Notes under the pieces: model-generated
Database searches by the model: none
What the model saw: the letters and a program-made list of their open reading frames with translations, nothing else
Told to the model about the DNA's origin: nothing
Shown here: piece by piece, positions 9,553-43,924 of the stretch
Position numbering within the stretch: the first letter of the stretch is position 1
Layout: the number at the start of each line of letters is the position of its first letter
Assembly: GCA_963830085.1 (NCBI GenBank)
Contig: CAWHLF010000013.1
Span: forward strand, 60,808-124,807
Length of the DNA: 64,000 nucleotides
From: an uncultured Actinomycetes bacterium
GTDB taxonomy: Bacteria; Actinomycetota; Thermoleophilia; Solirubrobacterales; Solirubrobacteraceae
Reading direction: 5' to 3'
Translations under genes and position numbers: made by a program

Positions 9553-10825
9553 TCAGGTCTCGTAGCTCTCGACGCGCTTCTTGATGTTCGCGAGGAAGCG
9601 CGCGGCGAGCGCGCCGTCCATCGCGCGGTGATCCCAGGAGAGGCCGAGGATGACCATCGGCCGGATCGCGATCGCGTCGTCGCCGAACTGGTCGGTGACG
9701 ACGACGGGGCGCTTGATGATCGCCTCGACGTCGAGGATCGCGATCTGCGGCTGGCTGATGACCGGCGTCGCCATCATCGAGCCGAACTGCCCGGGGTTCG
9801 TGATCGTGAACGTCGCGCCGCGGACGTCGTCGGGGCTGAGCTGGCGGGAGCGGGCGCGGCGGGCGAGGTCGCGGATCCGGCGCGACAGTCCTTCGGGGCT
9901 GAGGTCCTGGGCGCCGCGGACGACCGGCACGATGAGCCCGTCCTCGCCGAGCGCGACCGCGATGCCGAGGTTCACCTGCTCGTGGACGGTGTGGACGTCG
10001 TCCTCGAGCCAGGCGTTGAGGAGCGGGAACTCGACGAGCGCGCCGATGACGCAGCGCGCGATGAGCGGGAGCGCGGTGATGCCGAGCTGCTTGCGCGCGA
10101 GCTCGATGCGCGAGACGTCGACCTCGATCCACGTCGTGCACGTCGCCGCGGTGTCCTGCGAGCGCTTCATGTGCTCGCCGATCTGCTGGCGCATCCGCGA
10201 GAGCGGGCGGCCCTCCGGCGGCGTGTACGGGCCGCTGGCGGCGGCGCCGGCGCCGGCGCCGGGTCGGTACGGGCTCTCGATGTGGATCGTCGGCTCGTCG
10301 CCGGCGGGCGCGGCGGTGGGCAGGCCGCCGTGGGCCTGCACGTACGCGAGGACGTCCTGCTTGCGCACGCGCCCCTCGCGGCCGGTGCCCTCGATCTCGT
10401 CGAGGTCGACGTCGTGCTCGTCGGCGATGCGCTGCACGACCGGCGAGTAGCGGCGGATCGGGCCGGTGCGGCGGGCGGGCGCGGGGCGCGCCGGGGCGGG
10501 CGCCGGACCGTTCGCGGCGACCGGTCGCGGCGGCGGCGGCGGATACCGAGGCCGGCCGCGGCGGCGGCGGATCGTCCTCGGCGCTGTGCGGCTGGCCGGG
10601 GCGCGCGTCGGTCGAGATGCGCGCGAGCGTCACGCCGACGTCGACGGTCACGCCGACGTCGACGAGGATCTCGACGACGCGGCCGGTGACGGGCGACGGG
10701 ACCTCGGTGTCGATCTTGTCCGTCGAGATCTCGCAGATCGTCTCGTCGGCCTCGACCCAGTCGCCGCGCTGCTTGCGCCACTCGACGAGCGTGCCCTCCG
10801 CGACGGAGACGCCCATCTGCGGCAT
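9553..10825 (-). pseudogene. dihydrolipoamide acyltransferase (E2) of a BCKDH/acetoin-type complex, frame-disrupted in the linker (about 10480-10560)
   Basis: The lipoyl domain MPQMGVSVAEGTLVEWRK...EISTDKIDTEVPSP is in track ORF 9491..10825. The PSBD and catalytic domain (RYSPVVQRIADEHDVDL...LSWDHRAMDG...) are in track ORF 9553..10437, in another frame. Confidence 0.85.
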
Positions 10826-10850
10826 CGTGACGTCGACGATCGTCGACGGA

Positions 10851-11816
10851 TCAATACTCGAGGAGCTGACGGCAGGCCTCCCTCACGCGATCGACGGATG
10901 GCAGCACCGCCGCCTCCAGCGGCGGCGAGAACGGGATCGGGATGTCCGGCGACGCGACGCGGACGACCGGGCCGTCGAGGTCCTCGAAGGCGTGCTCGGC
11001 GATGAGCGCGGACACCTGGGCGCCGGCGGCGCAGGTCTGGTTGGCCTCGTCGACGACGACGACCTTCGAGCATGCCCGGACGGCGGCGAGGATCGCCTCG
11101 TCGTCGAGCGGGACGAGCGAGCGCAGGTCGAGGACCATGATCGACGCGCCGTCGATGTCCTCGGTCGCCTCGAGCGCCGTGTGGACCATCGCGCCGTACG
11201 TGATGACCACGAGGTCGGAGCCCTCGCGCGCGACGCGCGCCTTGAAGGGGGTCTCGTAGGAGCCCTCGGGAACCTCGCCCTTCGCCCGGCGGTAGAGGTT
11301 CTTGTGCTCCATGTAGATGACCGGGTTGGGGTCGCGGATCGCGGCGATGATGAGCCCCTTGGCGTCCTCGGGCGTGCTCGGCGCGACGACCTTCAGCCCC
11401 GGTGAGTGCATGAACCACGCCTCCGGGTTCTGGGAGTGGAACGGACCGCCGGAGAAGCCGCCGCCGCTCGGCAGGCGGACGGTGATGTTCACCGGCAGGC
11501 CCTGGCGGTAGAGCATCTTGCCCGCGACGTTGATGATCTGGTCGAAGCCGCAGGAGACGAAGTCGGCGAACTGCATCTCGCAGACCGGCCGCAGCCCGAC
11601 GACCGCTGCGCCGACGGCGGTGCCGACGATCCCGGACTCCGCCAGCGGCGTGTCCATGACGCGGTCGGGTCCGAACTCGTCGATGAAGCCGTCGGTGACC
11701 TTGAAGGCCCCGCCGTAGACGCCGATGTCCTCGCCCATGAGCAGGACGCGCTCGTCGTCGCGCATCTCCGTGCGCAGGCCGTCGGAGATCGCGCGGAGGT
11801 AGGTCATCTCCGTCAT
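10851..11816 (-). CDS. 2-oxoacid dehydrogenase E1 beta subunit
   Basis: MTEMTYLRAISDGLRTEMRDDERVLLMGEDIGVYGGAFKVTDGF...DTPLAESGIVG... The ATG overlaps the E1-alpha stop (ATGA at 11813-11816). Confidence 0.9.
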   Translation of the reverse strand: MTEMTYLRAISDGLRTEMRDDERVLLMGEDIGVYGGAFKVTDGFIDEFGPDRVMDTPLAESGIVGTAVGAAVVGLRPVCEMQFADFVSCGFDQIINVAGKMLYRQGLPVNITVRLPSGGGFSGGPFHSQNPEAWFMHSPGLKVVAPSTPEDAKGLIIAAIRDPNPVIYMEHKNLYRRAKGEVPEGSYETPFKARVAREGSDLVVITYGAMVHTALEATEDIDGASIMVLDLRSLVPLDDEAILAAVRACSKVVVVDEANQTCAAGAQVSALIAEHAFEDLDGPVVRVASPDIPIPFSPPLEAAVLPSVDRVREACRQLLEY

Positions 11817-12889
11817 GTCGCGCTCCTGAAGCCGCTCCACGGCGCCGCCCCGTCCTCGAGCAGGATCTCGTCGGCCTCGCGCGGGTGAAAGAGGCGGTCG
11901 GTCGCCGTCGCCGGATCGGGCATCGGGCCGGCGAGCGCGATCTTCGTCGCGCCCTCGACCTCCGACAGGACGTCGGCCTTCAGCGCCTCGACGTCGATGC
12001 CGAGCGCTGCGACGCGCGCGCTCTGGCGGTCGATCGGGTCCTTCTTGCGCCACTCCTCGACGAGCGCCTTGGGCACGTACTTCATGTCGTCGTGGGCGCC
12101 GTGGCCGTGCATCCGCATCGTGACGGCCTCGATGAGCGTCGGGCCGCCGCCGGAGATCGCGCGCTCGCGCGCGACGCGGGTGGCCTCGAACATCGCCTCG
12201 ACGTCGTTGCCGTCGATGCTGACGCCGGGGAAGCCGTAGCCCGCCGCGCGCTCGACGGGGTTGACGGCGAACTGCTGGTCGATCGGCGTGGAGTACGCGA
12301 ACTGGTTGTTCTCCATGACGAAGATCACCGGCAGGCGCTGGACGCCGGCCCAGTTCATCGCCTCGTGGAAGTCGCCGCGCGAGGTCGAGCCGTCGCCGAA
12401 CCATGTCAGCGCGCAGCGCGACTCGCCGCGGAGCTTGAAGGCCATCGCCATGCCCGTGGCGACGAGCATCATGTCGGGGAGCATCGAGACCATCCCGACG
12501 CAGCCGGTGCGGTAGTCGCCGAAGTGCACGTTGCCGTCGCGCCCGCTCGTGATGCCGGCCTCGCGACCCATGTACTGGCTCAGCACGCGCGCCGGCTGCA
12601 CGCCGCGGACGAGGTGCGCGCCGAGGTCGCGGTGCAGGACGCAGAGCCGGTCGGCGGCGGCCATCGCCCAGGTCGCGCCGACGGACACGGCCTCCTGGCC
12701 GAAGCCGTCGTAGAAGGAGCCCGGGACCTTGCCCTGCCGGTAGAGGTTCATCGCGCGCTGCTCGATCGCGCGCATGAGGAGCATGGCGCGCAGCAGACCG
12801 ACCCGGTCTTCCTGGGTCAGGTGCGCGGGGGAGGCCTCGTGGGCGGGTGTGTTGGGACCGATCGGAACGTCCGTGCTGCGGGTCGCCAT
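11813..12889 (-). CDS. 2-oxoacid dehydrogenase E1 alpha subunit (ThDP-dependent)
   Basis: 358 aa with ThDP motif GDGSTSRGDFHEAMNWAGVQRLPVIFVMENNQFA. Confidence 0.9.
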   Translation of the reverse strand: MATRSTDVPIGPNTPAHEASPAHLTQEDRVGLLRAMLLMRAIEQRAMNLYRQGKVPGSFYDGFGQEAVSVGATWAMAAADRLCVLHRDLGAHLVRGVQPARVLSQYMGREAGITSGRDGNVHFGDYRTGCVGMVSMLPDMMLVATGMAMAFKLRGESRCALTWFGDGSTSRGDFHEAMNWAGVQRLPVIFVMENNQFAYSTPIDQQFAVNPVERAAGYGFPGVSIDGNDVEAMFEATRVARERAISGGGPTLIEAVTMRMHGHGAHDDMKYVPKALVEEWRKKDPIDRQSARVAALGIDVEALKADVLSEVEGATKIALAGPMPDPATATDRLFHPREADEILLEDGAAPWSGFRSAT

Positions 12890-16589: not shown

Positions 16590-17876
16590 CAGTAGACGAG
16601 CGCGAGCGGCTGCTCGAGCAGCGCCCGGATGCGGGCGAGGAACTGCGCGGCGTCGGCGCCGTAGAGGATGCGGTGGTCGCAGGCGAGCGTCACGCCCATC
16701 GTGTGGCGGGCGACGAGCGCGCCGTCGCGGGCGACCGCCCGCTCGGCGAGCGCGCCGACGGCGAGGATCGCCGCCTGCGGCGGGTTGATGACCGCGGTGA
16801 AGTCGGTGACGCCGTACATCCCGAGGTTCGAGACCGTGAACGTCCCGCCGCTGAGCTCCGGCGGCGTGACCGTGCCGGCGCGGACGCGCTCGGCGAGCGC
16901 GCGCGTCTCGCGCGCGATGTCGCGCAGGGACTTGCGGTCGGCGTCGAAGACGGTCGGCACGACGAGCGCGTCGGGGGCGGCGACCGCGACGCCGACGTTC
17001 ACCCGGCCGTGGAGCTCGAAGCGGCCGTCGCGGTAGCTGCCGTTCGCGCGCGGGAACTCGCGCAGCGCGAGCGCGCAGGCCTTGACGATCATGTCGTTGT
17101 AGGACGGGACCTCGTCGCCGATCGCCTTGAGCTCGGCGCGCAGCGCGACGCAGCCCTCCATGTCGATCTCGCTGCGCAGGGTGAACTCCGGGACGGTCGC
17201 CTTGGACTCGGCCATCCGGCGGGCGATGAGCTGCTGCGTGCGGGTGAGCTCCTGGATCGTGATGTCGCCCTTCGCGGTCCCGGTCTCGCGGTCTCGCTGG
17301 CGCGGGCGCCGGGGGCGGCGGGGCCGGCGCGGGCTGCGCGGTGGCGGGTCGGCGCGGCGGGAGCCTCGGCGGGCGGTGGCGGCGGAGCGGCCGCGGCGTG
17401 CTCGACGTCGGCCTTCACGATCCGCCCGCCAGGACCGCTGCCGGCGATCTGACGCAGGTCGATTCCCTGCTCGCGGGCGATGCGCCGGGCGAGCGGCGAC
17501 GCCTTGACCCGGGCGCCCGGCACCGGCGGCGGCGGGGCGGGTTGCGCGCGGCCGGCGGCGGCTGGGAGGCGGCGGGCTGCGGCGCCGGCGCGGCCGGTTG
17601 CGGCGCCGCCTCCGCGGCGGGCGGCGCCGCGCCGTTGCCCGCGCCGTCGTCGAGGCGCGCGATGACGCTGCCGATCGGCAGCGTGTCGCCGGCGGCCGCG
17701 ACGATCGTCAGGACGCCGGCGGCATCGGACTCGTAGGTCAGCGTCGCCTTGTCGGTCTCGATCTCCGCGAGCGGCTCACCGCGGGCGACCGCGTCGCCGT
17801 CGGCCTTCAGCCACTTGAGGATCGTCCCCTCCTCCATCGAGTCCGACAGCCGCGGCATGACGATCTCGGCGGTCAT
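16589..17876 (-). pseudogene. pdhC: dihydrolipoamide acetyltransferase (PDH E2), at least two frame disruptions (about 17540 and 17276)
   Basis: The three domains sit in three different frames. Lipoyl domain: MTAEIVMPRLSDSMEEGTILKWL...EIETDKA. PSBD: [40 protein letters not shown]. Catalytic domain: ...[19 protein letters not shown]...ACDHRILYGADAAQFL. Confidence 0.85.
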
Positions 17877-18862
17877 CAGCGCTCCCGGATCGTCGCCAGC
17901 ACGGCGTCGATGATCTGCGGCTCGTGGGGGAACGCGATCTGCTCCAGCGGCTTGGAGTACGGCATCGGCACGTCGGCGCCGGTGACGCGCTGGACCGGGG
18001 CGTCGAGGTCGTCGAAGGCCTGCTCCTGGATGAGCGCGGCGAGGTTCGCGCCGACCCCGCCGTGCGGCCAGCCCTCCTCGACGATGACGCAGCGATTCGT
18101 CTTTCGCACCGACGCCAGGATCGTGTCGAGGTCCAGCGGGCGCAGCGTGCGCGGGTCGATGACCTCGCACTCGATGCCGTGCTCCTCGCTGAGCGTCTTC
18201 GCCGCGCGCGCGGCGGTCAGCGCCATGCGCGAGATGCCGACGATCGTGACGTCGTCGCCCTCGCGGCGGATCGCGGCCTCGCCGAAGCGCACGGTGAAGT
18301 CCTCGTCGTCGGGCACCTCTCCGCGCTGGCCGTAGAGGTACTCGTGCTCGATGAAGACGACGGGGTTGTCGTCGCGGATCGCCGACTTCAGCAGCCCCTT
18401 GGCGTCGGCGGCCGTCGTCGGCACCGCGACGAGCAGCCCCGGGACGTGGAGGAAGAGCGCCTCCCAGGAATGCGAGTGCGTCGGGCCGAGCTGGTGACCG
18501 GCGCCCTGCGGCATCCGCACGACGAGCGGGACCTTCACCTGGCCGCCGAACATGTAGCGGATCGTCGCGGCGTGGTTGACGATCTGGTCCATCGCCAGGA
18601 GCGAGAAGTTGATCGTCATGAGCTCGACGACCGGCCGCAGGCCGGTCATCGCCGCGCCGACGCCCATGCCGACGATCGTGTTCTCGGAGATCGGCGTGTC
18701 GCGGACGCGCTTCTCGCCGAACTCGTCGAGCAGGCCGGCGGTGACCTTGAAGGCGCCGTTGAAGACGCCGATGTCCTCGCCCATGAGCATGACGTTCGGA
18801 TCGCGCGCCATCTCCTCGCGCAGCGCGGCGTTCAGCGCCTCGCGGTAGCGCATGATCGCCAT
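17876..18862 (-). CDS. pdhB: pyruvate dehydrogenase E1 beta subunit
   Basis: MAIMRYREALNAALREEMARDPNVMLMGEDIGVFNGAFKVTAGL... ATGA overlaps at both ends. Confidence 0.9.
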   Translation of the reverse strand: MAIMRYREALNAALREEMARDPNVMLMGEDIGVFNGAFKVTAGLLDEFGEKRVRDTPISENTIVGMGVGAAMTGLRPVVELMTINFSLLAMDQIVNHAATIRYMFGGQVKVPLVVRMPQGAGHQLGPTHSHSWEALFLHVPGLLVAVPTTAADAKGLLKSAIRDDNPVVFIEHEYLYGQRGEVPDDEDFTVRFGEAAIRREGDDVTIVGISRMALTAARAAKTLSEEHGIECEVIDPRTLRPLDLDTILASVRKTNRCVIVEEGWPHGGVGANLAALIQEQAFDDLDAPVQRVTGADVPMPYSKPLEQIAFPHEPQIIDAVLATIRER

Positions 18863-20016
18863 CAGTCGGCGTCTCTCTGGGCGGCGTCGGCGGGCTTCGG
18901 CGCGGCGCCGCTCTCGCCGTGGTCGGGGAGGTCGGCGCGGTCCATCCCGCGCTCGTCCTCGCCGCGGTGCGGGTGCGGCGTGCGCTCGTCGACGGAGTAC
19001 CAGCCGCCGACCTGGTCGCCGAGGACGTAGATGTCGTCGTAGAGCGCGTTGGGCGGCGGGTGCGGCGAGGCGTCGGCGAACGCGACGGCGGCGTCGACGC
19101 GGGCGATCGTGTCGTGGTCGATCTCGGCGCGCTCGTCGTCGGTGAGGATGCCGGCGGCGACGAGCTGGTCGCCGAAGACCGCGAGCGGGTCGCGCTTGCG
19201 CCACTCGTCGACCTGCTCCTTCGTGCGGTACTCCTCGGGATCGGCCATCGAGTGGCCGCGGAAGCGGTAGGTCACGGCCTCGACGAGCATCGGCCGGCGC
19301 TCCTCGCGGGCGATCGCGAGCGCCTCGCTCGTGACCCGGTAGGTGTCCATGACATCCATGCCGTCGCAGCGCATGCCCGGCACGCCGAAGCCCTCGCCCT
19401 TGCGCAGGAGGTCGGTGATCGCCGAGTGGCGGTCCAGCGCCGTCCCCATCCCGAACTGGTTGTTCGTGATCATGAAGACGACGGGCAGCTTCCACAGCGC
19501 GGCGAGGTTCATCGTCTCGCCGAACGTGCCCTGGTTGGAGGCGCCGTCGCCGAACTGGCAGAGCGTGACCTCGTCGAGGCCGAGATAGTCGGAGGCGAGC
19601 GCGAAGCCCGCCGCGAGCGGGAGGTTGCCGCCGACGATCCCGTAGCCGCCCATGAAGCGATTCGCGAGATCGAACATGTGCATCGAGCCGCCGCGGCCCT
19701 TGCAGAGGCCGTCGACGCGGCCGAAGAGCTCGGCCATCACGCGGTTGGGATCGCTGCCGCGCGCGAGCGTGTGGCCGTGCGAGCGGTACGTCGAGATGAG
19801 GTAGTCCTGGTCGCGCAGCGCGCGCGTGGACCCGACGATCGTCGCCTCCTCGCCGATCGCGAGGTGCAGGAAGCCGCCGACCTTCGCCTTCGCGTACATC
19901 TCGCCCGCGCGCTCCTCGAAGCGCCGGATGAGGATCATCGTCTCGAGCCACTCGCGCGCGACGTCCGGCTCCGGGAGGCCGGCGTTCTCGGCAGTGTCCG
20001 CGACGTGTTCTGCCAT
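18862..20016 (-). CDS. pdhA: pyruvate dehydrogenase E1 alpha subunit (with acidic C-terminal extension)
   Basis: ATG 20016 gives MAEHVADTAENAG...RRFEERAGEMYAKAKVGGFLHLAIGEEA...GDGASNQGTFGETMNLAALWKLPVVFMITNNQFGMGT. The track ORF extends further upstream without support. Confidence 0.9.
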   Translation of the reverse strand: MAEHVADTAENAGLPEPDVAREWLETMILIRRFEERAGEMYAKAKVGGFLHLAIGEEATIVGSTRALRDQDYLISTYRSHGHTLARGSDPNRVMAELFGRVDGLCKGRGGSMHMFDLANRFMGGYGIVGGNLPLAAGFALASDYLGLDEVTLCQFGDGASNQGTFGETMNLAALWKLPVVFMITNNQFGMGTALDRHSAITDLLRKGEGFGVPGMRCDGMDVMDTYRVTSEALAIAREERRPMLVEAVTYRFRGHSMADPEEYRTKEQVDEWRKRDPLAVFGDQLVAAGILTDDERAEIDHDTIARVDAAVAFADASPHPPPNALYDDIYVLGDQVGGWYSVDERTPHPHRGEDERGMDRADLPDHGESGAAPKPADAAQRDAD

Positions 20017-20065: not shown

Positions 20066-20406
20066 ATGGCAGCCCGCCCCGAAGGCGATCCCGCCGCGAT
20101 GGAGGCCACCGCGCGAGCGATCATCGAGATCGTGGGCCGGCTGCAGGGGGTTGACGGCCTGATCATGCGGGCGCTGCCGGCGAAGGCCTTCGAGGCGCGC
20201 GGGCGCACGGCGCTCAACGAGAAGCTCAAGGGCGCGGCGCTGGGCGTCGAGCACACCGCGACGAACCTCCAGCGCCTCGCGACGCAGCTCGGGCAGGGGG
20301 CCGAGCAGCTGCGCCACGACCAGCAGCAGTGGGAGGCGGCGAACGCGCCCGCCGCGAGCGCGAGCGGGAGGCCGAGCGGCGCGAGGCGGAGGCGAGGACG
20401 CGGTGA
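20066..20406 (+). pseudogene. small all-helical protein (possible WXG100/EspC-class partner), frame-disrupted near 20338
   Basis: MAARPEGDPAAMEATARAIIEIVGRLQGVDGLIMRALPAKAFEARGRTALNEKLKGAALGVEHTATNLQRLATQLGQGAEQLRHDQQQWEAA. The adjacent frame then gives ERARREREREAERREAEARTR*. Its TGA (20404-20406) overlaps the GTG of the next gene. Confidence 0.5.
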
Positions 20407-21386
20407 GCGGTCGCGTCCGCTTCGACCCGCCGGAGATGATCCGCGCGGCGGGCCGCCTGGAGGCGATCGCCGAGGATCTCATCGGCGCCGGGGTCGCCGT
20501 CGGCGCGGTCCCGACGGCCGGCCTGGCGCCCGCGCCGGCGAGCAACGCGCGGATCGTGCTCTCCGAGGCCGGCTGCGACCTCGGGACAGCGCAGACGACG
20601 ATCGACCGGGCGGCGCGCGAGATCGTCGGGCGCGCGATGAAGGCGCTCGCGCTCGACGACGGAGGCGGCGCGTTCAAGCACCTGCTGCTGCTCAAGAAGC
20701 GGCTCGGCAAGGGCTGGGGCGACTTCGTCAAGGGTCTCAGGGATCCCAGCGGCTGGGACGCCGCGAGCTTCCTGAACTCGATCCGCAAGGAGGGACGCGA
20801 GTGGCTCGGCAAGACGACGAAGGAGCTGAGCCGGACGCGCAAGCTCAAGTGGGCGCAGCAGTACTGGGACGAGAACGCGTGGGTCCGGCGCCGGTTCGAC
20901 TCGGCCAGGGACCTGCAGAAGCACGCCGGACGGACGTTCGGCAAGGAGGTCCGCGCCCTCGAGAAGGCGACCCGGCTGCTCGACAAGCTCGAGCCGGTCG
21001 CGCACCTCCCCGCCGGCCTGCGCAAGAACCCGCTCGTCAAGCGGGCGCCCGGCCTCGGCAGCATCATCACGTTCGCGGAGGGGATGAGCGAGGGGCGCGG
21101 CGTGACCGAGTCCGCCGAGAAGGCCGCCGCGCAGGCCGCCGGGAGCGCGGGTGGCGCCGCGCTCGGCGGCGCCGCCTGCGGGACGGCGGCCGCCGCGACC
21201 CTCGGCCTCGGCGCGTTCACGTGCCCGGTCCTCATCGGCGGCGGCGCGGTCATCGGCGACTACGTCGTCGGCAAGGCCTACGACCCGTTCATCAAGCCGG
21301 TCGTGGGCGTCGTCCACGAGGGCGGCAAGAAGATCCTCGACGGCGGCAAGAAGGTCGTCGGGTTCGTCGGGGGGCTGTTGGATTGA
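20403..21386 (+). CDS. putative secreted membrane-active toxin: helical-hairpin N-domain, basic helical middle, C-terminal glycine-zipper domain
   Basis: 327 aa. N-terminus: VRFDPPEMIRAAGRLEAIAEDLIGAG... C-terminus: AAQAAGSAGGAALGGAACGTAAAATLGLGAFTCPVLIGGGAVIGDYVVGKAY...GGKKILDGGKKVVGFVGGLLD. No enzymatic motif seen. Confidence 0.6.
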   Translation: MSGRVRFDPPEMIRAAGRLEAIAEDLIGAGVAVGAVPTAGLAPAPASNARIVLSEAGCDLGTAQTTIDRAAREIVGRAMKALALDDGGGAFKHLLLLKKRLGKGWGDFVKGLRDPSGWDAASFLNSIRKEGREWLGKTTKELSRTRKLKWAQQYWDENAWVRRRFDSARDLQKHAGRTFGKEVRALEKATRLLDKLEPVAHLPAGLRKNPLVKRAPGLGSIITFAEGMSEGRGVTESAEKAAAQAAGSAGGAALGGAACGTAAAATLGLGAFTCPVLIGGGAVIGDYVVGKAYDPFIKPVVGVVHEGGKKILDGGKKVVGFVGGLLD

Positions 21387-21859
21387 GCACTCCCCGAGCG
21401 TCGGCGGCCAGGGGCGGGTTCCGGCCGGGACGGGTCGCGACGGTCGTCGCGATCTGGTTCGGGCTCGCGGTCGCGATCGACGCCGCGTTCGCGGCCGCCG
21501 GGTTCGTCGATGCGCTCGTGCTCGTGTTCCTCGCGGCGCTCGTCGTCCTCGCGACGCCGAGGGCGATCGGGCTGTGGCGCGGGACCGTCTCGCACACGGA
21601 GATCACGCACGCGTTCCGCAGCTACTCGATCGAGAGCTGGCAGGCCTTCACGCCGTCGGGCGTCATCGCGATGGACGGCATCGCCGTCTCGTTCGCCGTC
21701 CTCGTGACGACGAACGGAGAAGGCGCCGTGGCCGGGGCGATCGGGCTGGCGGGCGGCGTCGTCTTCGTCGTCTTCATGCTCGGCGGCCTGACCGCGGCGC
21801 TCGTGCGCCGGCCCAGCTTCCTGCTGCCCGCGACGATGCGACCGGGGAGGTCCGCGTGA
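21383..21859 (+). CDS. polytopic membrane protein (candidate immunity protein)
   Basis: TTG 21383 overlaps the upstream stop (TTGA). It is the in-frame tail of track ORF 20066..21859. About four TM segments: VATVVAIWFGLAVAIDAAFAAAGFVDALVLVFLAALVVLA...GIAVSFAVLVTT...AIGLAGGVVFVVFMLGGLTAAL. Confidence 0.55.
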   Translation: MSTPRASAARGGFRPGRVATVVAIWFGLAVAIDAAFAAAGFVDALVLVFLAALVVLATPRAIGLWRGTVSHTEITHAFRSYSIESWQAFTPSGVIAMDGIAVSFAVLVTTNGEGAVAGAIGLAGGVVFVVFMLGGLTAALVRRPSFLLPATMRPGRSA

Positions 21860-22302
21860 TCCCGCCCGCCTTCGACCTCACGGTCCCCGACGACTGGACG
21901 GCGCTGCCGCCGACGCCCGGCTGCGTGGCGCTCGTCGCCGAGCCCGAGACCGAGGCCGACGACTTCCGCTGCTCGGTGTCGCTCGTCTTCGAGGAGATCC
22001 CCGAGGATCAGCGTGAGCTCGGGCTCTACGTCCGCACGCGGATCGGGGCGCTGACCGACCTGCTGACCGATCCCGTCGTCATCGACCTCCAGCCGGCGAC
22101 GCTCGCGGGCGCCGACGCGGTCGTGTCGACGATCGCCTACCGGCAGGGCAACGACGCGCGCACCCTGCGCCAGTGGGCGACCGTCACCGCCGCCGGGCTC
22201 GGCGTGCTCGTCGGCGCCGTCTGCTCGAACGACCGCTTCCCGGGGCTGCAGGCGACGCTCGACGAGATCGCCGGCTCGCTCGTGCTCGGGGACGGCACGT
22301 GA
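21856..22302 (+). CDS. hypothetical soluble protein, DcrB/DUF1795-like by sequence pattern
   Basis: GTG 21856 overlaps the upstream stop (GTGA). Sequence: VIPPAFDLTVPDDWTALPPTPGCVALVAEP...FRCSVSLVFEEIPED...LDEIAGSLVL. The family assignment is from pattern recall only. Confidence 0.5.
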   Translation: MIPPAFDLTVPDDWTALPPTPGCVALVAEPETEADDFRCSVSLVFEEIPEDQRELGLYVRTRIGALTDLLTDPVVIDLQPATLAGADAVVSTIAYRQGNDARTLRQWATVTAAGLGVLVGAVCSNDRFPGLQATLDEIAGSLVLGDGT

Positions 22303-22881
22303 GCGTCCGCACCGAGCTGCTGCCGCCGCGGCTGCGCGCGGCGATCGAGGGCGGGGCGGCCGTCGACGACGTCGCCGCCGAGCTGCTCGAGGATCCCACG
22401 GGCGCGATCGAGGTCGCGATCCGCGCGCCGGCGCGAGGCGGCCTGGGCCGACGGGCTGTTCGGCGCGGCCGGCTTCGTGCTCGCGGCGTCCGACGACGAG
22501 AGCGCGCTCATGACGGGCATCGTCGCCGCCGTCCCGCTGCAGATCGCGATGCTCGCCGGCCTCGGGCCACGGCCGGTCGCCGAGGACGGCGCGATCGTCA
22601 TCGGCGACATCGACGATCCGCTCGCCGCGGATGAGCTGCCCGCGGCGGTCGCAGCCGTCGTCGCGGCGCCCGACGTGATGCGCTGGAGCGCGCGGGCGAG
22701 CTGGAACGGGCACGACGGCCCGGCGGAGCGCGAGGTCGTCGTCATCGACGGCGGATCGGCGGGGCTCCTGCTCTGCACGCCTGTGCCCGGCGAGGAGGGC
22801 ACGGCCTTTCAGACGTGCAGCTCGACCGACGTCTGGCGGCTGCTGTGCGCGCTGCTGCCGTATCCATCCGAGCTCGGCTGA
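22299..22881 (+). pseudogene. hypothetical protein with an EspG-like C-terminus, frame-disrupted near 22432
   Basis: GTG 22299 overlaps the upstream stop (GTGA). It reads VSVRTELLPPRLRAAIEGGAAVDDVAAELLEDPTGAIEVAIRAPA. After a 1-nt shift it continues EAAWADGLFGAAGFVLAASDDESALMTG...EREVVVIDGGSAGLLLCTPVPGEEGTAFQTCSSTDVWRLLCALLP (track ORF 22477..22881). Confidence 0.5.
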
Positions 22882-22900
22882 GCGCGGATACCCTCGGCGG

Positions 22901-23539
22901 ATGCTGCCGACGGAGCATCTCCTCGCCTTCCTCGTCATCGCGACCGTGCTCATCGTCGTGCCCGGCCCGAGCGTCCTGTTCGTCGTCACGCGCTCGCTGA
23001 CGCTCGGTTCGCGCGCCGGCCTTGCGACCGTCGTCGGCAACGCCGCCGGCGTCTACGTGCAGGTCATCGCGGTCGCCTTCGGGATCGGCGCGCTCGTGCA
23101 GGAGTCGATCGCGGTCTTCACGGCGATCAAGCTCGTCGGGGCGGCGTACCTCGTCTACCTCGGCGTGCAGACCTTCCGTCACCGCCGCGAGCTCATGGCG
23201 GCGCTCGACGCGCCGGTCGAGCGCAAGCACCTGCGGCGGATCTTCGGCGACGCCTTCCTCGTCGGGATCTTCAACCCGAAGGTCATCGTGTTCTTCATGG
23301 CGATCCTGCCGCAGTTCGTCGACCGCTCGGCGGGCTCGGTCCCGATCCAGCTGCTGGCGCTCGGCGCGGTGTTCTGCCTCATCGCGCTCGTCTGCGACAG
23401 CATCTGGGCGCTCGCTGCGGGTGCCGCGCGCTCGTGGCTCGTGCGCTCCCCGCGCCGCCTCGAGGCGATCGGCGGGGCCGGCGGCGTCGCGATGGTCGGC
23501 CTCGGCGCCGGCCTCGCGCTGAGCGGCCGCAAGGACTAA
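22901..23539 (+). CDS. LysE/RhtB-family amino-acid exporter
   Basis: 212 aa: LLAFLVIATVLIVVPGPSVLFVVTRSL...FNPKVIVFFMAILPQFV. Confidence 0.9.
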   Translation: MLPTEHLLAFLVIATVLIVVPGPSVLFVVTRSLTLGSRAGLATVVGNAAGVYVQVIAVAFGIGALVQESIAVFTAIKLVGAAYLVYLGVQTFRHRRELMAALDAPVERKHLRRIFGDAFLVGIFNPKVIVFFMAILPQFVDRSAGSVPIQLLALGAVFCLIALVCDSIWALAAGAARSWLVRSPRRLEAIGGAGGVAMVGLGAGLALSGRKD

Positions 23540-27097: not shown

Positions 27098-27196
27098 GGC
27101 TAGGATTCGGGGCCTAACGGGAGCCCGTGACGCGGGCTGAGAGGGCTTGGAGCCGACCGTCAACAGCTGATCCGGATCATGCCGGCGAAGCGAGGT
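27098..27196 (+). promoter_or_regulatory. TPP (THI-box) riboswitch upstream of thiO-thiS-thiG; boundaries approximate
   Basis: Both conserved cores are present on the + strand: GGGCTGAGAGG, then ...CAGCTGATCCGGATCATGCCGGCGAAGCGAGG. This matches the CUGAGA and ACCUGAUCUGGAUAAUGCCAGCG cores. The 3' end abuts the SD (GAGG) and the ATG at 27200. Confidence 0.8.
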
Positions 27197-27199
27197 GTC

Positions 27200-28350
27200 A
27201 TGCCGCAGGACCCAACAGCATCACCGGACGTCGTCGTCATCGGCGGCGGCGCCATCGGGCTCGCGATCGCGTGGCGCGCCGCACAGCGCGGCGCCGCCGT
27301 CTGCCTGCTCGAGCGCGGCGAGCTCGGCGGCGGGACCTCGCGCGTCGCGGCCGGGATGCTCGCGCCCGTCACCGAGGCCGATCCCGGCGAGCTCGCCCTG
27401 CTGGCGCTCGGGCTGCGCGCCGCCCGCGAGTGGCCGGCGTTCGCCGCCGAGCTCGCCGAGGCGTCCGCGACCGACCCGGGCCTGCGGCGCTGCGGCGCGC
27501 TCGTCGTCGCCCGCGACGGCGACGAGGCCGCGGCGCTCGAGCGCGAGCTCGCGCTGCGCGTCGATCTCGGGCTCGCCGTCGAGCGGCTGCTGCCGAGCGC
27601 CGCGCGGCGCCTGGAGCCCGCGCTCGCGCCGACCGTGCGCCTCGCGCTCGCCGTCGACGGCGACCACGCGGCCGACCCGCGCGCGCTCGTGCTCGCGCTG
27701 GGCGAGGCCGCCCGCCGCGCGGGCGCGCGGCTGCGCACCGGCGCGCACGTGCGCGGCATCCGCGTGCGGCACGGCCGCGTCGCGGGGGTGCAGCTCGACG
27801 GCGGCGAGGTCGTCGAGGCGCGCCAGGTCGTCGTCGCGGCCGGTCCGTGGAGCGGCGCGATCGACGGCGTGCCGGAGGACGCGAGGATCCCGCTGCGCCC
27901 GGTCAAGGGGCAGATCATGCGCCTGCGCGACCCCGCGGGCCCGGGCCTGCTCGAGCGCATCGTCCGCTTCGAGGGCGGCTACCTCGTCCCGCGCGGCGAC
28001 GGGCGCTACGTCCTCGGCGCGACGATGGAGGAGCGCGGCTTCGACACGACCGTGACGGCGGGCGGGATGTACGAGCTGCTGCGCGACGCCGGCGAGCTCG
28101 TGCCGGGCGTCCACGAGCTCGTCGTCGAGGAGACGGCGGCCGGCCTGCGCCCGGCGACGCCCGACAACGCGCCCGTCATCGGGCGCTCGGAGGCGGTCGA
28201 GGGCCTCGTCTGGGCGACCGGCCATCACCGCAACGGCATCCTGCTCGCGCCGGTGACCGCCGAGATCGTCGCCGGCGTGCTCGCGGGGACCGCCGCGCCC
28301 GCCGCGTTCGCGCCCGGCCGCTTCGCCCCGACCCGCGTGAGGGCGACGGC

Positions 28351-38990: not shown

Positions 38991-40913
38991 TCACGACTTG
39001 CGCGTCGCCCGTCGCACCCGCCGCTCGCGCCGCGCGGCCCGCGCCGCGGGGGGCGTCGCCTTCGTCTCGAGGAACTTCAGCGCCTGGACGTAGAGCAGCG
39101 AGGAGGGCTTCGTCGTGATCTCCGCGTCGCGCAGCGCCTCGAGGAACTCCTCGGGGCCGTCGAAGTCGGCCATCCGCACGCGCACCGAGCCGAGGCCCTG
39201 CGCGACGTGCGAGTCCGAGCCGGCGCCCGCGAGGATCCGGTACTTCGCGGCGAAGCGCTCGGCCTCCTCGTTGAAGGACCCGATCGCCACGCGCGGGTTG
39301 TAGACCTCCATCGCGTCGATGTCCTCGACGATCCCGAGCAGGTGCTCGTAGTCGGGCACCGCGTGCATGCGGTCGAACGGATGGGGCACGTAGACGAGGC
39401 CGCCCTGGCGCTTGATCTCGGCGACGGTCTCGGCGAGCGTCAGGCCGCGCGGGATCTTCTCCTCGATGAAGAGGCCGATGACCTCGCCCTGGTCGGCGGT
39501 CTTGACCTCCTCGGCGACGATGACCTTCACGCCGTACTCCGCGGCCTTCTCGCGCGCCTCGTGGGCGCCGGAGACCTCGTTGTGGTCGGTGACGGCGATC
39601 GCGCCCAGACCCTGCTCGCGCGCGGTCGCCAGCAGCACCTCGACCGGCGTCGCGCAGTCGTGCGAGTGGTCGGTGTGCATGTGCAGGTCGACGTCGATGC
39701 GCTTGCGCGTGCGGAGCTTCGCGGCGAGCTCGGGGTTGCCGGTCAGCGGGTGGCGGCGGGCGACGAGCGCGCCGTAGACCTCCTCGAGCTCGTCGGCGAC
39801 GCGGTCCCAGGACAGGCGCTCGCGCAGCGGCTCGGCAGCGGCTCGCAGGCGGTCGCGCAGCTCGGGGTCGGCGACGAGGCGGTCCAGCTGGGCGGCGAGC
39901 GTGTCGACGTCGCGCGGCTCGAAGTGCAGCCCGCGGGCGCCGTCGTCGAGCGCCTCCTCGTAGACGAGCAGCCGCGACGCCAGCGGGACGGCGCCGGCGT
40001 GCATCGCGCGCAGCAGGAGCGTCGGCGCGGGCGCGGCGCCGTCGGAGGCCGCGACGAGAACGTCGATCCGGGCGAGGGCGGCGCCCTCGGCAAGCTCGCC
40101 GGGGGCCACGTACGTCACGCGCTCCTCGACGTCGGCACGCAGCGGCGTGCTGCTCGAGGGGCCGCGCTCGGAGACGATCGTCGCCTCCCAGGCGGCGTCC
40201 GGGTCCAGGCGGCGCAGCGCGCGCAGGAAGAGCCGCAGCGCGGCGCGCTCCTCGACGTCGACGAACCCGATCCGGACGGGCCCGCCGGGCTCGTCGGCGC
40301 GGGGCGGCGGCGCGTCGGCGCCGGGCGGCAGGACGCGGTAGTCGGCCGGGAAGTAGCGCTGCATGAGCTCGCAGGTCGTCGCGAAGCTCGCGGTCCGCGC
40401 GTCGAGGCGCCCGAGGACGAGCTGGACGACCTTGCGGGCGACCTGCGTCGAGAGCAGGCGCTCGGTCGGCGCGTGGAACGTCCCGACGTTCAGCGCGCGC
40501 GAGTGGCGCAGCGCGGCGCTCGACGTCGACGGCGCGAACGGCTCGTGGACGTGGCAGATGTCCAGCGGGACGATCGTCAGGAGGTCCTCGATCGTCCGCG
40601 AGACGTCGACCGGCAGCGCCGGCACGCGCCCGCGCGCGCCGGGCAGGTCGGGCAGCGCGTCGCCGACGGCGAGGACGCGCGGCTCCCCGCCGGGCTCGGG
40701 CAGCAGCGCCGCCGGATCCTCCCGCGCGGCCCGCAGCGCGGCGCGCGTCTCGCGCACCGCCTCCTGCGAGCGCGACGGCGCGACGATGAGCACGCGATGT
40801 CCGCGCGACGCCAGCTCGGCGGTCACCCGCTCGACGTACGTCGTGATCTCGTGGCGTCCGGCGCCCCACGGGTAGGGCGTCACGTGGGCGATCGCGAGCG
40901 GCTCTGAGGTCAC
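38991..40913 (-). CDS. fusion protein: GT4-type glycosyltransferase (N) + PHP-family phosphoesterase (C)
   Basis: 640 aa, uninterrupted. N-terminal half is GT-B/GT4-like (IAHVTPYPWGAGRHEITTYV...HVHEPF...). C-terminal half is PHP (VDLHMHTDHSHDC...AIAVTDHNEVSGA...VYVPHPFD...AGSDSH). Confidence 0.8.
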   Translation of the reverse strand: MTSEPLAIAHVTPYPWGAGRHEITTYVERVTAELASRGHRVLIVAPSRSQEAVRETRAALRAAREDPAALLPEPGGEPRVLAVGDALPDLPGARGRVPALPVDVSRTIEDLLTIVPLDICHVHEPFAPSTSSAALRHSRALNVGTFHAPTERLLSTQVARKVVQLVLGRLDARTASFATTCELMQRYFPADYRVLPPGADAPPPRADEPGGPVRIGFVDVEERAALRLFLRALRRLDPDAAWEATIVSERGPSSSTPLRADVEERVTYVAPGELAEGAALARIDVLVAASDGAAPAPTLLLRAMHAGAVPLASRLLVYEEALDDGARGLHFEPRDVDTLAAQLDRLVADPELRDRLRAAAEPLRERLSWDRVADELEEVYGALVARRHPLTGNPELAAKLRTRKRIDVDLHMHTDHSHDCATPVEVLLATAREQGLGAIAVTDHNEVSGAHEAREKAAEYGVKVIVAEEVKTADQGEVIGLFIEEKIPRGLTLAETVAEIKRQGGLVYVPHPFDRMHAVPDYEHLLGIVEDIDAMEVYNPRVAIGSFNEEAERFAAKYRILAGAGSDSHVAQGLGSVRVRMADFDGPEEFLEALRDAEITTKPSSLLYVQALKFLETKATPPAARAARRERRVRRATRKS

Positions 40914-40994: not shown

Positions 40995-43924
40995 CTAGAG
41001 CTGCACGACGAACGAGCAGGGGCCGCCCTGCGACGCCTGGAAGCCGGTCGCGCCCGCGTAGCTCGAGCGCGCGGTCCAGGTGCCGAGATCGAGCCGGTCC
41101 GACGTCGGCGCCGTCGTGGCCGTCCAGTTGCCCTGGGCGTCGGTGTTGACGACGACCGTCTCGGTCGGCGTCACCTGGTCGTTGCCGATCGTGCGCGTCG
41201 GCTTCGTGAACGTCACGCTGACCGCCGACCCCGCGGGCGCGCCCGCGAGGTTGCCGCTGATCGAGAACGTGCTCGGCGCGGTGGGGCTGAACGTCTGCGG
41301 CGACGGGCAGGACTGCGTCAGCGTCGTCGCCACGGGCCCGGGCGGCGGTGTCGTGCCGCCCTGGACGGGGATCTTCACGGGCGCCGCATCGCTGGCGTCG
41401 ATCGCGATCTCCAGCTCGCCGGGCGCCGGCGGGCCGTCGTTGAACTCCGCCTCGACCGACACCGAGCCGTCGCCGGCGATCGCCTTGCCGACCGGCTCGC
41501 CCCTGCGCAGCAGGGTGACCGGCTGGCCGGCGAGCCCGAGACCGCCCGGGAACGTCATCTCGACGAGGAACGGCGGCGGGTCGCCGGGCTTCGGGATCGG
41601 CTGCTCCTTGTAGACCGCCGTGAACACCGCGGGGTTGAAGACGATCGGCGCGGACCCGCCGCCGAACATCTGCATCGTCGGATCCCCGAAGTAGTGCCAG
41701 AGGTACAGCTCGTTGCGGGTGTTGCCGTCGCCGCCCGCGATCCCGGGCCCGGACGGCGGCGAGAGCCCGGCGAGCCGCAGCTTGCCGTGCACGAGCGCGT
41801 CGCCGACGCGCTGCTTCGTCGCCGGTCCCTCCCCGCCGAGCACGCTCGGCAGCATCGCGTCGACGAAGCCGAGCGCGATCTGCGAGTTGTGCCAGGACGG
41901 CGAGTTGCGGGTGTCGCCGAAGGCGCCGACCGCGCCGCCGGTGGGCTTCACGAGCGCGTTCTGGACGAACGACGTCTCGTCGGTGTCGTATTGCGCGCTC
42001 GCGCAGTTGATGCTCAGCACGACGGGCAGGTTGGCGTTGGAGTTCGCCAGCGCGTCGACCTCGGTCGTCGTGAAGAACGGGTCGCCCCAGCCGTCGGACC
42101 AGCCATGGTCGCGGTGGACGACCATGAACCGCCCCTGGTTCCACGCGGCGCTGACGTCGGCAGCGTCACCGTCCCAGGCGAACGCCGGCTTCTTCAGCGA
42201 CGCCGGCAGGTCGGTGCCGTCGTTGAACTTCAGCGGGTTCGTCGCCGGGTTGTCGTCGTAGATCCGGTCGACGGCGACCCCGCGCGGCGACGAGCCCGCT
42301 GCGGAGCGGTCTCGGCGAACTGGATGAACGTCCGGTCCTCGCGGCCGTCGTTGACCTCGCCGGCCTCGTCGGTGTCCTGGAACTGCGCCGCGATCATGGC
42401 CTTCGTCAGCATCGGCCCGGTCGGCGGCGTCGTCTCGTAGCCGATGATCTTCGCGAGCTGCGCGTCGATCTGGGCGACGTCGTTGCCGAGGATCCGGCCG
42501 ACGGCGACGTCGGGCAGCTCGTCGGTGTCGTTCTTCGTCGAGTACGGGTTGTCGGACGGGATCCCGGCGGGCCCGGTCGTGAACGTCGGGACGAGCTCGT
42601 CGTCGCCGATGACCGTCACGTAGCTCGGGCGGATGCAGAGCGGGTGGTTGAGGTGCGAGCGGATGAACGCCTGGATCGACGTCGCCGTCGAGCCGACCGC
42701 CGCGGTCCCGGTCTGGAACACGCGCGTGAGGTAGCCGGCGTTGCGCCGGGCCGTCGCGTACGTGTTCGCCGAGGCGAGCGTCGCCGGGTTCGTGATGACG
42801 AGCAGCTCCTCGCCGCACGGCTGGTAGACGATCGGCCGGTCGAGCTTGCGCACGACGCTCGCGTTGAGGAGGCCGCCCACGATCCGGTTCTGCGCTGCCT
42901 CCCACGGCGAGAGCGGGGCATCGCTGAACCCCTGGCCGCCGGGGAACGTCACCGCGATGTCGACCTGCGTCAGGACCTCGAGCTTGTCCGTCTTCGGGTT
43001 GTACTGCGCCGCCGGCACCTGGACCCCGGCGATGTTCATGTCGCGCGCCTGACCGAGCTTCTTGCCGAACGCGGGGGCGGCCGGGACGTTGCCGTCCTGC
43101 GCATAGGCGCCTTGGTTGACGGTGAACGGCGCGGCCGCGAACGGCGCCGCGCCGAAGTTCGGCTTCGGCGTGAGGCCCGGGGACTGGTCGACGCTGTCGG
43201 GCTGCACGGGGTAGACCTCGACGCCGTCGAGCGTGTAGGAGGTCGTCTTCGTCGCCTTGACGTCGAGCGTCGCGCCGTCGGGCACGGCGATGAGGCTCGA
43301 GGCGACCGGGATGCCGGGCGTGCCGGGCGCGCCCGGGGCGTCGGTGTTCGGCAGGACGAGCTTCGTCCACGTCTTGCCGCCGCCGGTCTCCGGGACGAAG
43401 CGCAGCTGCGGGAGCTGCACGCGGATGCTCATGCCGTTCTCGTCGCTGCGCAGGACCCTCGTCCTCGTGTCAGCGAGTGTGCTCGCGGCGACGCCCCCGC
43501 CGCAGGCCTTCGTGCGCCGGTCCGCGAGCAGCCGCCGGCTGGCGGTCATCGAGGACGTGCCGACCGCCGCGAGGCGCTTGCGCAGCGTGTCGCGCGCCTT
43601 GGCGCGCAGCGTCGAACGGACCTTCGTCGACTTCAGTGACCTGCGGTAGCTCGCGAGGTCGCGGACGGCGACGCACGGCCGTGCGCGCGCGGCGCCGCGC
43701 GCCTTGCGGGCGCGGCGCAGGAGCGTGCTGCGCTTCGCCGGCGAGATGCCGGTGCGGGGCAGCGCGGTCGTCTGGCGCACGAGCGCCGAGAGCGCCGACG
43801 CGGCGGTCGGCGTCTTCTTCTTCGGCGCTGCCGCGGGAGCGCTCGTGCCCCCGGCGACGAGCGCGGCGGACAGGAGCGTCGCGGCGGCGGCGATCGCCCA
43901 GCGGCCCCTCGAATTCGTGGACAT
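40995..43924 (-). pseudogene. large secreted peptidase C25 (gingipain-like, caspase-fold) protein, frame-disrupted around 42260-42310
   Basis: N-terminal part is track ORF 42230..43924. It has a signal peptide (MSTNSRGRWAIAAAATLLSAALVAGG) and an Arg/Lys-rich helical region. C-terminal part is track ORF 40995..43370. It has VVHRDHGWSDGWG (His) and VLSINCASAQYD (Cys), plus Ig-like C-terminal domains. Confidence 0.7.

Follow-up and report, generated by a model that had tools for sequence, protein, structure and literature searches.

A conserved five-gene module of an uncultured actinomycete links an EspG-fold protein to a candidate glycine-zipper membrane toxin and its putative immunity protein

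Antibacterial toxins that use type VII secretion systems (T7SS) for export have received much attention in Bacillota but very little in Actinomycetota; in the latter, EspG is known for chaperoning PE/PPE proteins. In type VI secretion systems (T6SS), the RHS protein Tse5 carries a C-terminal membrane-depolarising domain to which the membrane protein Tsi5 confers immunity, and Eag/DUF1795 chaperones shield the transmembrane (TM) helices of effectors. Among type VII toxins, EsxX of Staphylococcus aureus ST398 is encoded with LapX3/LapX4, ExiA/ExiB and ExiC/ExiD, and all of the products are present in one pre-secretion complex (PMC12744356). In this complex, small helical partners lie on the N-terminal rod of EsxX, whose C-terminal glycine zipper is the depolarising element; soluble proteins sequester the zipper before export, and polytopic membrane proteins protect against the exported toxin (PMC12744356). 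TelE/TipE of Streptococcus gallolyticus is a related system (PMC10434224), EsaE has been described as an EspG-fold chaperone of the type VII toxin EsaD (PMC11217815), and actinomycete Esx effectors encoded away from the secretion machine, beside a small hairpin gene, have been reported (PMC13622651). Here, we describe five + strand open reading frames (ORF1 to ORF5) at positions 20066-22881 of a 64,000-nucleotide stretch of contig CAWHLF010000013.1 from an uncultured actinomycete; this whole stretch is referred to below as the window. We judge it reasonably probable that the five genes form a module for a membrane toxin that would be exported by a type VII (Esx) system.

Operon structure and conservation

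The five genes lie between a pyruvate dehydrogenase operon and a gene for a LysE exporter, and are joined by 4-nt start/stop overlaps that can be read in the sequence: GTGA at 20403-20406 (ORF1/ORF2), TTGA at 21383-21386 (ORF2/ORF3), GTGA at 21856-21859 (ORF3/ORF4) and GTGA at 22299-22302 (ORF4/ORF5). A chain of four such overlaps had been proposed in an earlier, sequence-only reading of this DNA, and all four were present. Coding was supported by third-codon-position GC (GC3). In the window, which has a GC content of 73%, GC3 values of 0.9-1.0 traced the coding frame through 20066-22881, following frame 2 from 20066 to approximately 20338, frame 1 to 20406, frame 0 through ORF2, frame 2 through ORF3, frame 1 through ORF4, frame 0 from 22299 to approximately 22432, and frame 1 to 22881. 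The gap between ORF1 and the start of the E1-alpha gene on the opposite strand is 49 bp, and scans for promoter and terminator consensus sequences produced no match in this 73% GC DNA.

As the frame path indicates, ORF1 and ORF5 each change frame within the gene. In ORF1, one base is missing in the codon at 20339-20340, directly past the residues W-E-A. The first part of the gene (20066..20338, +, frame 2, GC3 0.87-1.0) encodes aa 1-91 of a small helical protein, a putative partner of ORF2, and the second part (20341..20406, +, frame 1) encodes the charged tail that follows a W-x-x-x-D/E motif and ends at the TGA at 20404-20406. When the frame was restored, the tail read ERARREREREAERREAEARTR before the stop codon in frame 1 and aligned with the tails of orthologues. 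In ORF5, there is one surplus base at approximately 22433, between a first part (22299..22432, +, frame 0, aa 1-45), which was delimited by GC3 and orthologue alignment, and a second part (22434..22881, +, frame 1). Removal of the surplus base yielded a protein of approximately 193 aa that reads ...IRAPAEAAWADG... and is co-linear with orthologues of 196-200 aa. Both breaks therefore lie at the sites, near 20338 and 22432, at which the sequence-only reading had placed them, and both repaired products are co-linear with intact orthologues.

At least five housekeeping genes of the window also switch frame in mid-gene, as detected by tblastn with the intact proteins of the related contig L001. 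These include a 2-oxoacid dehydrogenase E2 gene at approximately 10500, a fused E1 gene at approximately 11900, a second E2 gene at approximately 17400-17500, a gene near the thiamine cluster at approximately 27790, and a gene for an Lpd paralogue at approximately 61760. Since housekeeping genes carry the same kind of break, the breaks in ORF1 and ORF5 are best read as assembly indels, and a pseudogene reading of the two genes was rejected. The frequency of single-base indels in this assembly means that pseudogene calls in the window require caution.

The arrangement of the five genes was found to recur. The related contigs stem from bins of long-read soil metagenomes. Among them, loci L002, L004, L005, L007 and L009 repeat this gene order together with its 4-nt overlaps, and L006 and L008 do so in part. 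Order and overlaps were present in each contig of sufficient length; overall, order and coupling were seen in at least eight other loci or contigs, an arrangement far beyond chance. ORF1 overlaps the start of ORF2 by 4 nt in all loci, and intact ORF1 orthologues of 103-117 aa were present in L001, L002, L004 and L006-L009. At most loci, the module has the pyruvate dehydrogenase E1-alpha gene, on the opposite strand, as one neighbor and a gene for an amine oxidase or LysE as the other. A distant five-gene version, L010, is flanked by a metallo-beta-lactamase-fold gene on one side and a methylmalonyl-CoA mutase gene on the other; ORF1 can be read there, although the source annotation missed it. 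The conservation of gene order in relatives, and the co-occurrence of ORF2 with ORF3 to ORF5 even in the different context of L010, bear out the proposal that these genes constitute a module.

The family is narrowly distributed. A word-indexed search of 5.8 billion proteins recovered six relatives of ORF2 and approximately fifteen each of ORF4 and ORF5, and ORF2 identity among relatives was 32-76%. In a scan of a genome collection, ORF2 was carried by one species only, and tblastn of plasmids with ORF2 and with P0051, a 400-aa carrier of its C-terminal domain, returned no match. Comparison of ORF1-3 with their L001 counterparts gave a non-synonymous divergence (dN) of 0.17-0.29 and a ratio of non-synonymous to synonymous divergence (dN/dS) of 0.38-0.46 (NG86), as against a dN of 0.03-0.10 and a dN/dS of 0.12-0.32 for flanking genes. 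The dN of the module was thus 2-9 times that of its flanks, and none of the five genes had a dN/dS as high as 1. Purifying selection acts on the module, which nevertheless evolves fast.

The C-terminal domain of ORF2 and the membrane protein ORF3

ORF2 (20403..21386, +) encodes a protein of 327 aa whose C-terminal domain (20988..21302, +; aa ~196-300) is the candidate toxin. This domain contains the motifs LPxGLRxNP..V and GRSxxDAAGK, a glycine zipper, and two invariant cysteines (C259 and C274, the latter followed by P275). The glycine-zipper segment that had been read at the end of ORF2 is indeed present, with (G/A/S)xxxGxxxG motifs (aa 243, 247 and 252) and a GxxxG motif (aa 281) that span aa 243-260 and 281-285, within a moderately hydrophobic stretch (aa 249-292). 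A zipper of this type in a hydrophobic C-terminal segment is characteristic of membrane toxins such as TelE, EsxX, TspA, Tse4 and the C-terminus of Tse5. The Pfam glycine-zipper families PF05433, PF13488, PF13441 and PF13436 did not match ORF2 at E <= 1, and the remaining domain carriers likewise had no glycine-zipper Pfam match at E <= 0.01.

A full hidden Markov model (HMM) search of 1.84 billion representative proteins with the ORF2 family profile returned 90 matches. Approximately twenty of these were full-length relatives; in the remainder, the match was confined to profile positions ~200-300 and, with few exceptions, lay at the very end of the protein. Gap-free alignments were obtained between aa ~210-300 of ORF2 and the C-termini of proteins of several types. 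Carriers of the domain that were checked against Pfam included RHS-repeat proteins of 1287-1752 aa (P0060, P0061 and P0092), and longer matches of up to 2627 aa (P0065) fell outside the Pfam scan. In the RHS fragment P0071, the domain directly follows the RHS-associated core (E 1.4e-18), and at locus L011 it ends an RHS protein of 1716 aa. Proteins of approximately 400-480 aa (P0054 and P0064) carry the domain behind N-termini with near-threshold matches to WXG100, WXG100_2 or T7SS_signal. As judged by eye, P0059 (229 aa) has a Flp/TadE-like prepilin leader, ...ERGQATAEYAALLGLVALVIG..., and P0068 has a signal peptide and a proline-rich region. A survey has found that some type VII variants adjoin Tad pilus genes (PMC11217815).

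Twenty-four of these domain ends aligned nearly gap-free, with 88 columns for segments of approximately 85 residues, and Gly39, Cys43, Gly52, Cys58 and Pro59 (numbered on the C-terminal segment of P0051) were invariant in all of them. The near absence of gaps together with these invariant residues indicates that the match does not merely reflect glycine and alanine composition. A metagenome scan with the toxin-domain alignment recovered four loci. At L015, the gene for P0051 directly follows two small genes with Pfam matches to WXG100 and T7SS_ESX_EspC; these neighbors are the clearest link of the domain to type VII export. Because the same C-terminus is found on unrelated N-termini, after an RHS core and with an immunity-like gene adjacent, the assignment of this region as a polymorphic-toxin domain, and of ORF2 as a putative toxin, is supported. 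Its presence on both RHS and WXG100-type proteins also agrees with the earlier suggestion of a transferable glycine-zipper domain.

ORF3 (21383..21859, +) has a TTG start and encodes a protein of 158 aa. Hydrophobic blocks at aa 16-66, 89-112 and 112-144 are consistent with four TM helices, and the signature motifs LWRG and RPxFLLP follow TM2 and TM4, respectively; in the L010 version, these motifs read LWTG and RPRWLLP. At L012, a relative of ORF3 (23 bits), which shares LWR and RPxFL(V/L)P, is encoded directly 3' of an RHS-type copy of the toxin domain. At L015, the truncated gene that follows P0051 begins with two TM helices and then LWWRG, a relation seen by motif only. A different arrangement was found at L014 (415-1303), where the toxin domain is present in a divergent form, extended at its C-terminus by a proline-rich region, and is followed by an unrelated TM protein of 148 aa and then by a soluble protein of 143 aa that aligns weakly to ORF4 (9 bits). 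This last alignment hints that an ORF4-like partner may travel with carriers of the domain other than RHS proteins. Collectively, these findings support the assignment of ORF3 as a cognate membrane immunity protein. The sequence-only reading had described ORF3 as a protein of approximately four TM segments in the position of an immunity gene, and the relatives that lie directly 3' of the same domain in other toxin types strengthen that view.

EspG-fold, helical and soluble partners

For ORF5, an intact orthologue, P0008 (61-63% identical), was modelled with AlphaFold2 (AF2) and an alignment of 14 sequences. The resulting model (pLDDT [predicted local distance difference test] 91.9, predicted TM score 0.87) consists of two halves, each with a four-stranded antiparallel sheet and helices. 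In a Foldseek search of the PDB, the top 15 matches were all to EspG1, EspG3 or EspG5 (E 1e-6 to 1e-3, probability 1.0, query TM score 0.52-0.63), and the matches that came next were to unrelated folds with TM scores below 0.3. Neither ORF5 nor its close relatives matched the Pfam EspG family (PF14011), but a distant relative of 256 aa, P0021, matched it at E 0.0025 and 17.9 bits, against a cut-off of 27, over positions 31-231 of the 245 in the EspG model. As modelled, ORF5 is a compact EspG-fold protein, approximately 70 residues shorter than mycobacterial EspG. An EspG-like C-terminus had been suspected from the letters of ORF5; both the model and the P0021 match extend this likeness to the whole protein.

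The N-terminal region of ORF2 contains predicted helices at aa 9-34/43-85 and 117-144/168-194, modelled with moderate confidence. The loop between the first two helices has an invariant G40 followed by an invariant proline (confidence 68-82 in this region); in the family, this loop reads L-x-G in 11 of 18 sequences and T-x-G in 6, including the T-A-G of the window. ORF1 has a conserved loop, (F/Y)E(A/G)xG, and in eight of nine orthologues W-x-x-x-D/E closes its second predicted helix, ahead of the charged tail. Comparison of ORF1 with the N-terminus of ORF2 gave an hhalign probability of 56% (E 1e-4), and HMM cross-matches between the two, within a small local set, ranged from E 4e-4 to 3e-3; ORF1 thus weakly resembles the N-terminal hairpin of ORF2. 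When ORF1 and ORF2 were compared by hhalign with the two small L015 genes of WXG100 and EspC-like type, the probabilities, 0.7% and 5.6%, were insignificant.

The LXG profile (PF04740) did not match ORF2 at E <= 1, and the WXG100 and EspC profiles (PF06013 and PF10824) matched neither ORF1 nor ORF2. The suggestion that ORF2 begins with a helical region of the kind found in type VII substrates is supported by the predicted hairpin and its loop glycine, but not as membership in the LXG, WXG100 or EspC families. YxxxD/E and FxxxD export motifs are cited for described type VII systems (PMC12744356 and PMC13622651). At the level of motifs, the LxG/TxG loop of ORF2 and the WxxxD/E of ORF1 fit a split type VII signal. 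ORF2 is without a signal peptide, and its only strongly hydrophobic segment is near the C-terminal end.

ORF4 (21856..22302, +) encodes a protein of 148 aa that is soluble, without a hydrophobic segment, and is a candidate cytoplasmic chaperone or neutraliser. DcrB, Lpp-LpqN and PsbP have related folds. When 15 relatives of ORF4 were scanned singly against Pfam, all matches were sub-threshold: DcrB in 3 of 15 (best E 0.016), Lpp-LpqN in one (E 0.094), PsbP in one (E 0.15), and DUF3035 in six (best E 0.036), with the match in ORF4 of the window covering only 21 residues. ORF4 of the window itself gave no match of the DcrB, DUF1795 or PsbP type, and no PDB sequence matched ORF4. A DcrB/DUF1795-type fold is plausible for ORF4; as a family assignment, the DcrB/DUF1795 likeness proposed earlier is not established by sub-threshold HMM matches.

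Searches of Pfam, NCBIfam and PADLOC gave no usable match for any of the five proteins. When the family profiles were compared with PDB sequences, only compositional or chance matches were obtained (ORF1 matched designed coiled coils, and PprA and LRP4 appeared at E > 0.3), and the ORF2 family profile matched no PDB chain by sequence.

Beyond the module, the window contains two 2-oxoacid dehydrogenase sets, one at 9559-12889 (-) with a fused E1 alpha-beta gene and E2, and one at 16592-20016 (-) with split E1-alpha and E1-beta genes and E2; the five genes diverge from the second set. On the other side, the LysE gene starts 19 bp past ORF5 (22881-22901). An amine oxidase gene separates ORF5 from the LysE gene in most relatives (compared in L001, L002, L007 and L009) and is absent both here and in L008. 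A TPP riboswitch (27107-27210, +; Rfam RF00059, 58.7 bits) lies upstream of thiamine biosynthesis genes, of which those at approximately 27.9-29.3 kb encode a DAO-family (ThiO-like) protein, ThiS and ThiG. Unusual genes outside the module encode a fusion of a glycosyltransferase and a PHP domain (38991-40913, -), a peptidase of the C25 (gingipain) type together with its propeptide (42230-43924, -), and an IucA/IucC siderophore synthetase that ends in an FhuF-like region (58441-60219, +).

Proposed function, alternatives and comparison with known systems

In the proposed mechanism, ORF1, a helical hairpin of approximately 113 aa, would pair with the N-terminal hairpin of ORF2 to form a helical bundle like those of WXG100, PE-PPE and LXG-Lap proteins. 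This bundle would carry the split export signal, composed of the LxG/TxG loop of ORF2 and the aromatic-xxx-D/E motif and charged tail of ORF1. ORF5 would act as chaperone of the ORF1-ORF2 complex, most likely by binding the second helical hairpin of ORF2, as EspG does with PPE proteins and EsaE with EsaD, and would guide it to an Esx machine whose genes lie in another part of the genome. After export, the glycine-zipper hairpin in the last ~130 residues of ORF2 would enter the membrane of a neighboring cell and dissipate its potential, and ORF3 would guard the producer and its kin at the membrane. Before export, ORF4 would most likely shield the hydrophobic toxin domain in the cytoplasm of the producer, in the manner of ExiAB with EsxX or of the T6SS Eag chaperones. 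The 4-nt overlaps would hold the five products in fixed proportion.

Several observations weigh against this proposal. A search of the window's ten largest ORFs and of the regions flanking the module in L001 and L010, whole genomes being outside its scope, turned up no type VII core gene such as EccC; the lack of secretion machinery nearby had also been remarked in the sequence-only reading. These ten ORFs encode an MFS transporter, a carbamoyltransferase, a tRNA methyltransferase, the glycosyltransferase-PHP fusion, the C25 peptidase, an acyl-CoA ligase, the IucA/IucC enzyme, an M48 peptidase, a methyltransferase-phosphatase and a PAP2 protein. At threshold, no Pfam or NCBIfam model for LXG, WXG100, EspC, EspG, DUF1795 or the glycine zipper matched any of the five proteins. 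The AF2 model of ORF2, obtained from 18 sequences, had a pLDDT of 54.7 overall and below 40 in the toxin domain, and a fold search with it returned nothing below E = 1; PE, PPE and EsxA/B hairpins in the weak list were not counted, since helical hairpins are generic. At the RHS locus L011, no ORF3-like gene lies downstream of the toxin domain. In L001, which among relatives with a long contig is the closest, ORF1-3 are intact and ORF4 and ORF5 have been removed by a natural in-frame deletion that left a 53-aa ORF (11466-11627) in which the first residues of ORF4 are fused in frame to the last ~47 residues of ORF5. Since L001 keeps ORF1-3 despite this deletion, ORF4 and ORF5 are not indispensable there. 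Finally, in most relatives the module occupies a fixed single locus, in single copy and without orphan immunity genes; most competition toxins, by contrast, sit in variable islands.

It is because of the fixed chromosomal position and the loss of ORF4 and ORF5 in L001 that two further readings stay as minority alternatives. One of these, which we regard as unlikely, is that a type VII-related module serves the envelope of the producer itself, with ORF1 and ORF2 as a PE/PPE-like pair, ORF5 as their chaperone, the zipper of ORF2 as a channel or an anchor within the envelope of that same cell, and ORF3 as its membrane partner and not an antidote. Such a role would suit vertical inheritance at a fixed housekeeping locus among relatives with 32-76% ORF2 identity, a single copy without orphan immunity genes or marks of mobile elements, and a dN/dS below 1 for every gene; moreover, the characterised T7SSa clients of EspG, the PE-PPE pairs, are not antibacterial toxins. 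It is at odds with the use of the same C-terminal domain as terminal cargo of RHS proteins, where the site immediately behind the core is reserved for toxins, with the ORF3-like genes that accompany the domain whatever the N-terminus, and with a non-synonymous divergence 2-9 times that of neighboring genes.

The other reading, that ORF2 is a tail-anchored depolariser that is never secreted, held in check by ORF3-5 and released upon phage attack or stress as an abortive-infection or addiction poison, appears improbable. The lack of secretion machinery nearby would be explained, the absence of a signal peptide and the location of the only strongly hydrophobic segment near the C-terminal end of ORF2 are in keeping with it, and zippers of the EsxX type are toxic from the cytoplasm as well (PMC12744356). 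Against this, no role other than in type VII export is known for an EspG-fold protein or for a WXG100-like partner, and relatives of the toxin domain are found on clearly exported proteins, namely RHS proteins, toxins with WXG100 neighbors and a protein with a signal peptide. No PADLOC model matches the five proteins, and an anti-phage defence reading was unsupported. That the cluster is decaying and already inactive in this genome is very improbable. Although the window shows interruptions in two of the five genes and one relative, L001, is without most of ORF4 and ORF5, the like breaks in at least five housekeeping genes point to assembly indels, GC3 and amino acid sequence are intact past each break, and the orthologues are unbroken in at least six contigs.

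Within the preferred reading of an exported membrane toxin module, a more specific version can be put forward tentatively. In this version, a PE/PPE-EspG-style targeting unit, made up of ORF1, the N-terminal domain of ORF2 and an EspG of ~195 aa, would have been joined outside mycobacteria to a polymorphic membrane toxin, with ORF4 as an Eag/DcrB-like shield for the TM hairpin of the toxin; the two-cysteine toxin and ORF3 would be uncatalogued families. If this version is true, one actinomycete operon merges chaperone logic known separately from T7SSa, T7SSb and T6SS. The module ties an EspG-fold protein to a candidate toxin-immunity pair in a soil actinomycete, and the toxin domain and ORF3 seed two families unmodelled in Pfam and NCBIfam. 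Profiles of the two could be used to annotate approximately ninety protein clusters that are without Pfam or NCBIfam annotation for the domain. With five genes in about 2.8 kb, the locus also offers a compact system for examining how a hydrophobic toxin is prevented from doing harm ahead of its export by a T7SS.

Comparison with the mycobacterial ESX complexes of PE, PPE and EspG (PDB 4KXR, 4W4L, 5XFS and 6UUJ) reveals a similar layout. In both, a gene for a hairpin of ~100 aa precedes a longer gene with an N-terminal helical domain, the small partner ends in an aromatic-xxx-D/E motif, and there is a dedicated EspG-fold protein, the ORF5 model matching only EspG1/3/5 at E < 1e-3. The module differs in that ORF5 has ~195 aa, as compared with ~260-300 aa for EspG, and falls below the Pfam EspG threshold, that neither ORF1 nor ORF2 is matched by a model for PE or PPE, that no ESX locus adjoins it, and that a polymorphic toxin domain closes ORF2 and an immunity gene follows, features that PE/PPE pairs are without. 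Similarly, the EsaD-EsaE-EsaG system of S. aureus with EsxB/C/D (PMC10653861; PMC11217815) resembles the module in that a chaperone specific to the toxin, with a predicted EspG fold, is encoded next to a toxin of LXG type, the cognate immunity protein and small partners of helical structure. The toxin EsaD is a nuclease and its immunity protein is cytoplasmic, whereas the module has a membrane toxin domain and a membrane immunity protein. With Tse5/Tsi5 and the Eag chaperones, the module shares a glycine-zipper-type pore domain that serves as RHS cargo and is accompanied by a membrane immunity protein, and a small soluble chaperone that shields TM helices before export, the role proposed for ORF4. 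Those proteins belong to Gram-negative T6SS, and the ORF2 family profile has no match to any PDB chain.

EsxX offers a parallel for most parts of the module as predicted: a helical domain for targeting at the N-terminus and a glycine-zipper membrane toxin at the C-terminus, one or more small helical partner genes just upstream with an aromatic-xxx-D motif, polytopic membrane immunity, and co-encoded soluble proteins that hold the toxin in the cytoplasm. The novelty that the sequence-only reading had claimed for this combination of toxin and partners was overstated, since EsxX (PMC12744356) and EsaE (PMC11217815) had already been described. What differs from EsxX-type modules is the lineage, sequence-level family membership, the pair of soluble partners, the toxin domain and the chromosomal position. 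EsxX belongs to the T7SSb of Bacillota and the module to an uncultured actinomycete; the two have no detectable sequence similarity, and Pfam LXG is unmatched by the module, which has one upstream partner where EsxX has two. In place of the DUF5085 (GyrI-like) heterodimer of EsxX, the module has an EspG-fold protein and a possibly DcrB-like partner, its toxin domain has two invariant cysteines and occurs on RHS proteins too, and its five genes lie at a fixed chromosomal position, away from any secretion locus.

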